A stretch of 31,664 nt of DNA from Candidatus Sigynarchaeum calidifontis (GTDB lineage Archaea; Asgardarchaeota; Lokiarchaeia; Sigyniarchaeales; Sigyniarchaeaceae): the NCBI GenBank assembly GCA_030587475.2, contig JAUQYZ020000195.1, positions 1-31,664 on the forward strand, given 5' to 3'. Positions 3,727-28,014 of this stretch are shown here, piece by piece. Position numbers and translations under genes: made by a program. The notes under the pieces are model-generated. The model saw only the letters and a program-made list of their open reading frames with translations, had not been told where the DNA came from and ran no database searches. Position 1 is the stretch's first letter, and every line of letters begins with the position of its first letter.

Positions 3727-4028
3727 TCTTGATCCCCCCCCCCATGTGACTATCCGATTAGCGATTCGCCGCCATTCCAGGGGCGGCATTCGTATAACGT
3801 CAGTGCCGATTAACCCGCATCCGTTTGTCAACCATACTCTCGGATATAGCTTTATTTGTGATTCTATCATAAAGGCCATTGCTAACAATACCCGATTTGG
3901 TCATCTTTAAAAAGGTCTGGAGACGTTCCCGTGGAAGTAAAACGCGGGAATCGAAGGTCACGATAAAATCGATGGTTAAATAGAAACGATCTGAAAATGG
4001 CGGGGATAGTCGCCAGAAAGGTGAAAGA

Positions 4029-4784
4029 TTGGCATCCTCCAACATAGCCTTGTCTGCGGGGATACTGGCATTCACGGCAGGCATTATCGCGGCATACATG
4101 TCTGTGCTCTTGTTCAAGCGGAACAAGCTTAAGCCCCAGAAGGCAACATTATATGTTTTTTTTGCAACGTTCTCGTGGACGATCGTGTTCTTCTTGGCTT
4201 CACAGATATACTTCTTCGCGGGGATGAATCTGGCCTTGGCGTATGTGCTTCAAGTGATGATGTACGGTTCCATCTTCTCAGCAGTGATTTTTCTATACAT
4301 GTTTGCCAGGAAGACTTTTTTCAGGGAAAAAACGAGATTTTACGTTGCATATATCATCCTGGGAATCGTCCTTGTCGTGATATTGGCTGCAACCGAATCG
4401 AGCTACGTTGAACCCTTCCCGGATAGTATAGGGGGAGATTTCCCGGCTGTCATTTTGAAGACCGAACAAGGTCTTGTCCTTGTCGCATACGTCGTACCCA
4501 CTCTCGTGGGGATAGCCGTGTCAGCCTTCAAGGTCGCATCACGGCTCGAGGACAAGCTCTTTGCCCGGGGCTTTCAAGTGATAGGATTTGGATTGATCAT
4601 CGCGCTGATAACGATGGGATGCGACACGGTGGCAACCCTGGTCATTTCGAGTGCCATTGGCTATGCATTAGCGTTGTATGCCCAATGGATATTGAACGTG
4701 CTTGCTGCGGTTTTCTTGTACGTGGGATGGACGATGCCTGGCTGGTTCCAGCGAAGGTATGGTACCAGGTCCAGGGACGCGTGA
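4029..4784 (+). CDS. Stand-alone 7-TM membrane protein (receptor-like, no output domain)
   Basis: Seven hydrophobic segments with a longer loop between TM4 and TM5. C-terminal YVGWTMPGWFQRR. AGGTGA precedes the TTG start. Confidence 0.8.
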   Translation: MASSNIALSAGILAFTAGIIAAYMSVLLFKRNKLKPQKATLYVFFATFSWTIVFFLASQIYFFAGMNLALAYVLQVMMYGSIFSAVIFLYMFARKTFFREKTRFYVAYIILGIVLVVILAATESSYVEPFPDSIGGDFPAVILKTEQGLVLVAYVVPTLVGIAVSAFKVASRLEDKLFARGFQVIGFGLIIALITMGCDTVATLVISSAIGYALALYAQWILNVLAAVFLYVGWTMPGWFQRRYGTRSRDA

Positions 4785-25920: not shown

Positions 25921-26877
25921 ATGGATGGGAAGACCGTGAGTTCCGGGATCACGACGTTTCTAGCAGAGTGGGACGAAAACACGGGACCGAAGATAATCGA
26001 TTCGTACCCTGCATCGAAAAAAATTGATTTGGAAGATATAACGATGCAAATATTCACCGGTTTCCAGACCGTGTTCGGCACATCGGATGACGTCGCGTTC
26101 GACCGGACTAACCTAATTCTCCCGCTGAAGTCGCACAAGGTCACCGCGAAAATCTTGTTGGATTCCTACCGTTCCAAGCGAGTCCGGGGCGGCCGATTAC
26201 CGTTCATCGTGGCATTTCTCGTGCCGGTGAAGTTTTACGAGCGCGAGCTCCACGTGTACAACGATATTCAAGAACGGATCGTCGACCAGTACGCGAAGGC
26301 CAAAGTCATCGAGATGAAGGCCTATTTCGACGAGGTCGTCCAGATAACGGAGAAGCTCGCGATGGACACGCGGGAAAAGGCCGAGGCCCTGCTGAAAAAG
26401 AAGGATTACTGGGAATCCGTGGAGGAATTCCGCAACGCGCTCTTCTTGTTCAAGTTGACGAAAAACACCGAAGCAACGGAAGATACCTTGAAGAGAATGG
26501 AAGCGGCCATCACCAGGTACTCGAAAGAGATACTGGACGAGGTTAACGAGAAGATCAAGGCAGGCAACTGGGCACAAGCAGAGAAGGATCACTTGTTGAC
26601 CGTGCGCCTCGCCAAGGAAGTCAAGAACGAGAAGATCATCGACCTCTTCACGGGCAAGATGAACGATTTCTACGGGAGCTGGATCAAGGTGCTGGAGAAG
26701 GAGGCGAAGGCGGCGCAGAAGGCCAATGATCCCGCTACCACCAGGGCCATCCAAGAGAAGATCGTCAAGCTGGCGCAAAAAACCAAGGATGAGAAGCTGA
26801 TCAAGAAAAAAGAAAAGGATCTTGGCAAAGTCGCGCCACAACAGCCCGACGAAGCTGGCTTAGACGAAGAGGAATGA
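25921..26877 (+). CDS. uDENN/longin-like domain + tandem alpha-helical repeats
   Basis: N-terminal FLAEWDENTGPKIIDSYP and RVRGGRLPFIVAF, then three helical repeats at a 54-aa period and an acidic tail. Confidence 0.7.
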   Translation: MDGKTVSSGITTFLAEWDENTGPKIIDSYPASKKIDLEDITMQIFTGFQTVFGTSDDVAFDRTNLILPLKSHKVTAKILLDSYRSKRVRGGRLPFIVAFLVPVKFYERELHVYNDIQERIVDQYAKAKVIEMKAYFDEVVQITEKLAMDTREKAEALLKKKDYWESVEEFRNALFLFKLTKNTEATEDTLKRMEAAITRYSKEILDEVNEKIKAGNWAQAEKDHLLTVRLAKEVKNEKIIDLFTGKMNDFYGSWIKVLEKEAKAAQKANDPATTRAIQEKIVKLAQKTKDEKLIKKKEKDLGKVAPQQPDEAGLDEEE

Positions 26878-27834
26878 TTTCACGAGCCACTTGAAGTTTT
26901 CCTCGATGCCCTCGCTGTTCACGGCACTGCATAGGCCGATCCGGTAGTTCAAGCCACTGATCTTGCCTGGCTTCAACAACGCGTCGATCGATTTTTCCGT
27001 GAACGACGGGTTCAAGTCGATCTTGTTGCCGAGGATCAAGACAGGCGTGTTTTCGGCGACCTTGTTCGGGCCATCCTTTTTAAAGAGGTTTTCGATCATG
27101 CGGTCGAACTCGCGCTTCGATTCCTCGAGCTGCTCCTTGCTCGCGGTCGCGTCGATCACGAAAATCACGGCATTGGGGTTCACGTTCTGATCGTACCAGC
27201 GCTCGCGGATTTTCTCTTGCCCGCCCAGATCATAAATGTTGAACTTGAACGCATCGACGGCAGACTTGATGATTTGCATGCCGAGGGTTGGTTTTATCCC
27301 GGGATTGAACTTCTTGCCCGTTACCACGTTGATGATGGAGGATTTGCCGACTGCTTGGAGCCCGAGGATCAGCATCTTGCCAGGCTTCTGCGCTTCGGGT
27401 TTACGTCTGCAAGCTTCATATGCGTCCGTGATTAATAGTTTGATCAGCTTGTTGGCTTTTTCAATGCCTGGATCTTTTTTATCGCTTTTAACGTAGAAAC
27501 CCTTGTACCCGTCCTTTATTCCCTTTAGCGCGGTCGCGAACTTGGACAGCGTTGATTCGAAAATCGATGGCTTGAGATCCTCGTCGACCGTGAGGCTGAG
27601 CATTGCCATCTCCTTGTTACCCCGTGCCCATTGACTGTCCATGAAGAAGAGATAATTTGCGCACGAGAATGGCTCGCCACCGATCTTCGAGTGATGCTCG
27701 AAGAATCCTTCTCCCTCTGAAACGTCAAATAAACGGACGAGCGCCGCTTCGATGTCCTTGGACACGGCTTTTGGGATGGCATCGAACGCGATCGGCCCGC
27801 TCTGGTTGTCGAAATGCATGAGAACCAAGATCAT
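26860..27834 (-). CDS. uDENN/longin-like domain fused to an Arf-family-like small GTPase
   Basis: N-terminal LMHFDNQSGPIAFDAIP and DSQWARGNKE. G1 GLQAVGKS, G2 PTLG, G3 YDLGGQ...IRERW, G4 NKID, G5 CSA, terminal GIEENFKWL. ATG 27834 preferred (324 aa). Confidence 0.9.
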   Translation of the reverse strand: MILVLMHFDNQSGPIAFDAIPKAVSKDIEAALVRLFDVSEGEGFFEHHSKIGGEPFSCANYLFFMDSQWARGNKEMAMLSLTVDEDLKPSIFESTLSKFATALKGIKDGYKGFYVKSDKKDPGIEKANKLIKLLITDAYEACRRKPEAQKPGKMLILGLQAVGKSSIINVVTGKKFNPGIKPTLGMQIIKSAVDAFKFNIYDLGGQEKIRERWYDQNVNPNAVIFVIDATASKEQLEESKREFDRMIENLFKKDGPNKVAENTPVLILGNKIDLNPSFTEKSIDALLKPGKISGLNYRIGLCSAVNSEGIEENFKWLVKSFLFV

Positions 27835-28014
27835 TTTCCCAGCGACCTTTTTTCGAGTAATGGTCAATGATCTCCCCGGGCGGCACAAATATTTAATTGC
27901 GAATCAATTGTTGGAGCCAGCAAGAAATCATGACATAATATACCGTGAGATAGATTCTATACACGATAATGGTGGATTTGTAACGATAACCACGTGAACC
28001 ACCCGTGCATCTTC

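Follow-up and report, generated by a model that had tools for sequence, protein, structure and literature searches.

Does a pair of adjacent genes in an Asgard archaeon encode a small GTPase together with the parts that switch it off? The question is raised by positions 25,921 to 27,834 of contig JAUQYZ020000195.1 (assembly GCA_030587475.2) of Candidatus Sigynarchaeum calidifontis, of which 31,664 nucleotides were analysed as one window. Open reading frames (ORFs) and their translations define two genes here: that of P0001 (25921..26877, + strand, 318 amino acids), a longin domain with a helical tail, and that of P0002 (26860..27834, - strand, 324 amino acids), a longin fused to an Arf-like GTPase (G) domain. 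The genes are convergent, and by their coordinates the last 18 nt of each are shared with the other (26860..26877). A first-pass annotation made from the DNA letters had described them as a GTPase, a GTPase-activating protein (GAP) and a scaffold of folliculin (FLCN) and SMCR8 type; the genes, the motifs that it quoted and the codons of its two candidate arginines, Arg89 of P0001 (26185-26187) and Arg71 of P0002 (27622-27624), are exactly where it placed them. A functional link between the two genes is supported by their conserved adjacency and by longin-Arf-longin chains in relatives. To the reading that P0001 and P0002 constitute one regulatory unit for a small GTPase, acting through a longin pair and an arginine, we assign a probability of roughly one half.

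The longin of P0002 (residues 1-145; 27400..27834, - strand) was modelled by AlphaFold2, as was that of P0001, as an isolated domain. The P0002 model has a mean predicted local distance difference test (pLDDT) score of 95 and displays the longin order of elements, beta-beta-alpha-beta-beta-beta-alpha-alpha; the domain is without a Pfam match. The nearest structures were NPRL2 chains, with a VIA Z score of 13.2 (root mean square deviation 2.5 A, 129 residues aligned, almost collinear), followed by the Loki longin 8yqg (12.1), the FLCN complex chain 8dhb_J (11.7) and generic SNARE and adaptin longins (~10). The GAP-type longins of eukaryotes are defined by an arginine finger lying near a GP motif that occupies the beta1-beta2 turn (PMC12290439). 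P0002 carries G13-P14 at that turn (27793..27798, - strand), within F8-D9-x3-G13-P14 and followed by IP at residues 20-21, and a candidate arginine finger, W69-A-R71-G72, in the beta4-beta5 loop (27619..27630, - strand). In family alignments drawn from genome loci, comprising 30 diverse relatives of P0002 type and 33 of P0001 type, F8, G13, P14, R71 and G72 were invariant among the former, and the position of Arg71 was the only invariant column in 57 further P0002-type members of other architectures. The GP-to-Arg spacing of 57 residues equals that between P21 and R78 of NPRL2, R78 being the arginine finger of that protein according to Shen 2019 as cited in PMC8213707. A profile search of the PDB placed the GP motif on G20-P21 of NPRL2, although at a non-significant E value of 0.9.

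In P0001 the longin occupies residues ~8-130 (25942..26310, + strand; AlphaFold2 mean pLDDT 84) and runs beta-beta-alpha-beta-beta-beta-alpha. Its beta1-beta2 turn bears W17-D18-x3-G22-P23 (25969..25989, + strand), with YP at residues 29-30, five residues past G22-P23, and its beta4-beta5 loop bears V88-R89-G-G (26182..26193, + strand), a motif that is invariant in orthologues and at least 90% conserved in the family. Among the 33 members W17 and G22 were invariant, while D18 and R89 were conserved in at least 90%. The top Foldseek matches were GATOR1 chains, SEAC, the Loki longin 8yqg and the Lst4 longin, and VIA Z scores of 12.2, 10.7, 10.2, 9.9 and 9.2 were obtained for 8yqg, Lst4, 8dhb_J, a GATOR1 chain and C9orf72, with roadblocks at Z 8.5-9 barely below these GAP-type longins. 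The residues of the WDxxxGP motif were aligned with those of C9orf72 in a PDB profile search whose E value of 0.5 is non-significant. Structural neighbours of P0001 in the ESM Atlas include Folliculin/NPR2/C9orf72-like clusters, which are treated as leads only.

Pairwise BLAST aligned the first 32 residues of P0001 and P0002 alone (E 0.009). Comparison of the two family profiles gave a probability of 91% and an E value of 9e-7, placing GP on GP and Arg71 on Arg89, and by this measure the two N-terminal domains are homologous. On the evidence of the models the longin fold of both is firm: each begins with a beta hairpin and ends in helices, and neither has the roadblock topology (alpha-beta-beta-alpha-beta-beta-beta). 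Assignment to the GAP subclass is drawn from structural rank together with the motifs, and is the weaker for P0001.

Residues 147-320 of P0002 form an Arf-family G domain (26875..27396, - strand; Pfam PF00025, E 2e-33, 115.6 bits against a cut-off of 22.3), whose best solved relatives by sequence are ARL3, ARL8, ARL2 and the Asgard Arf GTPases 8oul and 8ouk. The motifs G1 to G5 are intact. Pattern matching located the P-loop G158-LQAV-GKS165 (27340..27363, - strand), the G3 motif D202-LGG-Q206 with its catalytic glutamine (27217..27231, - strand), which is followed by the Arf-type EKIRxxW, here EKIRERW, and the G4 motif N270-K-I-D273 (27016..27027, - strand). The switch-I threonine is T183 and a CSA motif stands at 302-304; the conserved positions of these motifs are invariant in orthologues. 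The amphipathic helix found at the N-terminus of Arf proteins is absent from P0002, and the longin stands in its place. The catalytic Gln206 is present, but neither the P-loop nor switch I shows an evident arginine, so that the G domain would need a finger from elsewhere. The first-pass annotation is partly upheld, in that both N-terminal domains fold as longins for which the structure search finds NPRL2, FLCN, Lst4 and the Lokiarchaeal longin closest, both proteins possess a GP motif and a conserved arginine in the beta4-beta5 loop, and the second carries a genuine Arf-family G domain. Its label "uDENN" was a misnomer, since no DENN domain follows either longin and neither protein matches the Pfam families Folliculin, NPR2 or C9orf72-like; the C-terminal domains of NPRL2 are likewise missing after both longins.

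The association of the two longin types was encountered in three arrangements. In the split form, to which the present locus belongs, the convergent pair was kept in all five of the other orthologous loci that reach past the 3' end, namely those of a genome of the same genus (L080/L089), of three metagenome contigs (L090-L092, 58-80% identity) and of a genome from another family (L012, 49% identity in the longin). Adjacency with overlapping 3' ends persists down to 49-61% identity, and the overlap measures 18-21 nt in L080/L089, L090 and L091 also. Protein searches suggest four more cases of adjacency. Orthologues of P0001 (n=12) share 53-85% identity; those of P0002 share 64-90% across the longin and are named Arf-like or GTP-binding in their sources. 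The ATG at 27834 is the start codon of P0002 and is common to its orthologues, an upstream TTG at 27888 being unconserved.

The operon form was found in four other genomes, where longin-Arf genes of ~320 amino acids are co-directional with P0001-type longin-TPR genes of ~690 amino acids. In the fused form, represented by at least seven proteins from six genomes, a single chain runs longin-Arf-longin and continues into PAS/GAF or other domains (one example is encoded at L075 2907-6281), and the break point of the split form falls exactly at the boundary between the Arf domain and the second longin. When the longin-Arf part was placed in a tree of 27 rows (a quick IQ-TREE run), the split, operon and fused forms were resolved as distinct lineages, with support in the Shimodaira-Hasegawa-like approximate likelihood ratio test (SH-aLRT) of 98, 91 and 100, respectively. 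Because the tree separates the three arrangements, the association with a P0001-type longin has been kept in three paralogous lines. Taken together, the split, operon and fused forms point, at the level of gene and domain order, to Arf-type G domains as the targets of longins with GP and arginine motifs.

A further association concerns genes of P0001 type in which a REC domain is joined to the longin; in five genomes these adjoin genes for stand-alone Rag/Arf-like GTPases. The loci (L058, L061, L064, L066 and L067) come from genomes of the same taxonomic order, and each has a REC-longin of ~300 amino acids directly beside GTPases of 184-188 amino acids that score as both Gtr1/RagA and Arf in Pfam. 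The arrangement looks like a longin under phosphorelay control beside its likely GTPase target.

Individual loci varied in detail. In L091 (Ga0172366_10001329, 4001-4261) the P0002 orthologue is reduced to an open frame of 87 residues in which the longin begins and only scraps of the G domain remain. Internal deletion or faulty assembly would account for its appearance; the adjoining P0001 orthologue is apparently intact across the stretch examined. Locus L070 (G273:C152, 2669-9368) encodes, all in one direction, a longin-TPR protein of 693 amino acids, two tandem longin-Arf proteins (323 and 296 amino acids) and a longin-TPR protein of 675 amino acids. Similar clusters, with longin-Arf between two longin-TPR genes, occur in G155 (L072) and G277 (L069).

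The mechanism that we consider for the unit is as follows. In P0002 a folliculin/NPRL2-type longin, with its GP turn and Arg71, replaces the membrane-binding N-terminal helix of the Arf domain, and P0001 contributes a second, homologous longin (WDxxxGP, Arg89) and a helical, probably TPR-like tail. The two longins would pair side by side, as they do in C9orf72-SMCR8, FLCN-FNIP2 and NPRL2-NPRL3, and would provide a cradle for the tethered G domain, which the WD face of P0001 would hold while Arg71, possibly Arg89, reached the gamma-phosphate and triggered hydrolysis of GTP. Because the cradle would be formed by the longin pair, docking of P0001 would control the switch-off, and the tail of P0001 could couple docking to another partner or signal. 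The dimer, the reach of the linker to the G domain, the arginine geometry, the choice between Arg71 and Arg89, the GAP activity and the output are what we infer here. A heterodimer is favoured by the gene fusion of the two longin types and by their conserved neighbourhood. Complex prediction with the two longin domains returned scores of 0.31, 0.29 and 0.31 against a mark of 0.32, which, obtained without controls, weigh neither way.

The tail assigned this coupling role comprises residues 131-318 of P0001 (26311..26874, + strand), is rich in lysine and glutamate and is probably a short TPR-like solenoid, Pfam TPR repeats occupying the same position in the longer relatives (~690 amino acids) of this longin type. 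No Pfam family was matched by either the longin or the tail of P0001. Within the tail (26370-26825, residues ~150-302) a weak periodicity of 54 residues was noted, with 12 of 40 identities at an offset of 54, and the repeat is inexact. The possibility that the tail is the remnant of a DENN domain was dropped, as it is all-helical and TPR repeats are found there in relatives.

Of the systems that could serve as a template, C9orf72-SMCR8(-WDR41), a longin-DENN heterodimer with GAP activity towards ARF1 (PMC8213707; PDB 7MGE, 7O2W, 6LT0), brings two homologous longins to an Arf-type G domain, as the pair would. SMCR8 has a GP motif and a loop arginine, R147, and P0002 has a GP motif and R71. In C9orf72 W33-D34 stands four residues before G38-P39 (PMC12290439), a spacing identical to that of W17-D18 and G22-P23 in P0001; the C9orf72 mutant W33G/D34K loses ARF1 GAP activity, and R147 of SMCR8 is the finger (PMC8213707). 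Unlike that complex, P0001 and P0002 have neither DENN domains nor a WDR41 component, the G domain is fused to P0002, the subunit with the candidate finger, and the C9orf72-like subunit P0001 also keeps an arginine. The likeness is one of fold and motif alone (Z 8-9, profile E 0.5). We advance only tentatively the more specific possibility that the pair is a prokaryotic counterpart of the C9orf72-SMCR8 Arf GAP, in which P0001, like C9orf72, would hold the G domain by its WD-GP face, while P0002, like SMCR8 or NPRL2, would insert Arg71 and carry its Arf substrate on a tether. In that event Arf-type GTPases would have had a heterodimeric longin GAP before eukaryotes arose, and a single module, its partner longin wired to TPR, PAS/GAF or REC inputs, would have passed through the single-chain, operon and split forms as stages.

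The Rag GAPs GATOR1 (NPRL2-NPRL3) and FLCN-FNIP2 (Lst7-Lst4) provide the best structural matches of both longins (PDB 7T3B, 9O5A, 8DHB, 6ULG, 4ZY8), and NPRL2 shares its GP-to-Arg spacing with P0002; in contrast to these complexes, the G domain of P0002 is of Arf type by sequence, not a Rag with a roadblock, and the NPRL2 C-terminal domain is lacking. Avl9, of a DENN-domain family of Arf1 GAPs (bioRxiv 10.64898/2026.01.05.697756), unites a longin-type domain, a catalytic arginine and Arf1 as target, but is a full DENN protein, and the Pfam matches to it here lie below any threshold: a few family members gave faint matches to Avl9 and Afi1, the best at E 0.019-0.028. In MglA-MglB, from bacteria, a Ras-like small GTPase is under the control of a dimeric GAP that belongs to the roadblock/longin superfamily; MglB differs in its roadblock topology, in being an unfused homodimer that supplies no arginine finger, and in its lower structural match (Z about 8.5-9).

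Several results weigh against a regulatory unit of the kind proposed. Adjacency was kept in every readable orthologous locus, but the family as a whole does not generally pair its two longin types: among five closed genomes picked regardless of synteny, only one of 30 P0002-type domains lay within 10 kb of a P0001-type domain, and this sole linked case was a fused protein. The genes of P0001 and P0002 are convergent, and so are not co-transcribed. Both proteins keep an arginine, where the eukaryotic complexes have one in a single subunit. The orthologue P0012 (source name Sigynarchaeota) has glutamine in place of Arg71 (WVQG); it is the only family member seen without this arginine, and its record also lacks the C-terminal end. 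The linker between longin and G domain in P0002 is only ~7 residues long and is highly conserved. Generic longins and roadblocks score just 1-3 Z units below the GAP-type longins, a separation that is weak for P0001. No match to Pfam Folliculin (PF11704), NPR2 (PF06218) or C9orf72-like (PF15019) was obtained with either protein to an E value of 10, nor to the same families with the 30 and 33 family members to an E value of 1. A profile of the arginine region alone matched no PDB sequence, and the PDB sequence matches to NPRL2 and C9orf72 were non-significant (E 0.5-0.9).

Some of these observations would suit a self-sufficient P0002, in which a longin homodimer brings Arg71 to its own or to the other protomer's G domain and P0001 would sense the nucleotide state as effector, adaptor or competitor and signal it onwards through its helical tail. 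The closest archaeal structure, 8yqg, is titled a longin homodimer, the longin- and roadblock-fused GTPases of MK-D1 were built as homodimers in published AlphaFold models (PMC10933270), and many family members are solitary or have no partner-type longin nearby. Left unexplained by such an arrangement is a second longin with conserved WD, GP and arginine that is fused after the G domain in one lineage and adjacent to it in two, and we regard it as rather unlikely.

It is similarly doubtful that the longins are platforms and not GAPs, anchoring or dimerising the G domain in the manner of the Rag roadblocks, or serving as an exchange factor (GEF) like DENN, TRAPP or Mon1-Ccz1, with the arginine structural or binding another ligand. 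Most longin-containing regulators are GEFs or scaffolds (PMC12290439), and Z scores of 8-9.4 were obtained in the fold comparison for DENND1 GEF domains, roadblocks and MglB. Against this, the combination of a GP motif with a loop arginine has been reported only in longins of GAP type and not in those of GEFs or scaffolds (PMC12290439), no other residue of the family is as conserved as the arginine, and the structural matches are headed by NPRL2 and FLCN, both of them catalytic subunits. Mere coincidence, whereby unrelated neighbours share a common domain of a greatly expanded family, would agree with the convergent, non-operonic genes, the unrelated flanking genes and the multi-copy nature of the family (2-9 copies per genome; 607 clusters), but is already very hard to hold when adjacency with the same overlapping 3' ends persists at such low identity and the same parts recur in operons and single chains.

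The regulatory unit formed by P0001 and P0002, if correctly read, would bear upon matching questions posed by two papers of 2025. FLCN/SMCR8-type longins of Asgard archaea with GP motif and arginine finger were reported with their partner GTPase left open (PMC12290439), while the regulators of the Asgard Arf GTPases (AArfs) were stated to be unknown, a structure search having given no convincing GAP (PMC11914678); in some AArfs a longin stands in place of the N-terminal amphipathic helix (PMC11914678). The natural fusions and conserved neighbourhoods in which the two longin types accompany an Arf-type G domain point to an answer to both. NPRL2-like Asgard longins fused to signalling and two-component domains had been described earlier (10.1101/2020.10.19.343400), and longin-fused Arf/Rag-like GTPases have been catalogued in MK-D1 and among the AArfs (PMC10933270, PMC11914678). 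In view of these reports the statement of the first-pass annotation that no paired module of this kind had been characterised overstates the novelty, the GP/Arg-finger longins, the longin-fused GTPases and the NPRL2-like signalling fusions of Asgard archaea all having been published (PMC12290439, PMC10933270, PMC11914678, 10.1101/2020.10.19.343400).

The FLCN/SMCR8-type and NPRL2-like longins of those papers are of the same domain kind as the present ones, for which PAS, histidine kinase and REC fusions were found too, but the papers (PMC12290439; 10.1101/2020.10.19.343400) describe no pair of two longin types, whereas in the present case one longin carries the G domain by fusion and a longin of the other type is linked to them in three arrangements. 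The catalogued longin- and roadblock-fused Arf/Rag-like GTPases (PMC10933270; PMC11914678) share the longin-then-G-domain layout of P0002, but their GP and arginine motifs and a partner gene were not analysed there. What goes beyond the literature is the linkage between an Arf-type G domain and longins of two types, including a split, two-gene version of it. With the same three parts joined in one protein in relatives, P0001 and P0002 are good candidates to represent an archaeal forerunner of the longin-type GTPase off-switches of eukaryotes. The split form is the handiest version, consisting of two soluble proteins of ~320 residues, one a titratable partner, with obvious sites for mutation at R71, R89 and W17/D18. 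Should an arginine-dependent switch prove true, archaea would be the root of the longin-heterodimer GAP principle that folliculin, GATOR1 and C9orf72-SMCR8 embody, and it would be tied there to sensor domains of prokaryotic style.

The family from which the pair is drawn is extensive. P0002-type longins were present in 161 of 400 genomes of the phylum, and with the queries used almost all of these genomes fell in the class to which the window belongs; each holds ~2-9 copies. Searching 1.84 billion representatives with a profile gave 607 clusters. Among the best 150 of these 607 clusters, all of them close family members, 35 were longin-Arf, 10 longin-Arf-longin with or without further domains, 48 a longin alone and 57 carried other tails, mostly PAS, histidine kinase, V4R, TPR, REC, zinc ribbon and TIR.

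Within the window the pair is flanked by genes for a GH2 glycosidase, a major facilitator superfamily (MFS) transporter and a B12-binding radical S-adenosylmethionine (SAM) enzyme, none with an evident tie to it. No RNA data set was listed as matching this DNA, while a single metagenome DNA run from a hot spring shares a small fraction of its sequence words. An antisense ORF of 214 amino acids inside the P0001 gene (26197-26841, - strand) was rejected as a shadow of the K/E-rich coding region and is no gene. Elsewhere in the same genome a second longin-Arf protein of 323 amino acids (C95, 20312-21283, - strand) groups with the fused longin-Arf-longin clade in the tree; it stops after the G domain, has no partner-type longin within 6 kb and may have arisen from the fused form by truncation or splitting. 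Other longins, of the one type and the other, are encoded at C234 30580-31485, C215 71-1735 and C209 22993-24444, their contexts being a REC-longin, a longin with a double zinc ribbon and a longin protein of 483 amino acids situated between two genes for small Arf-like GTPases.

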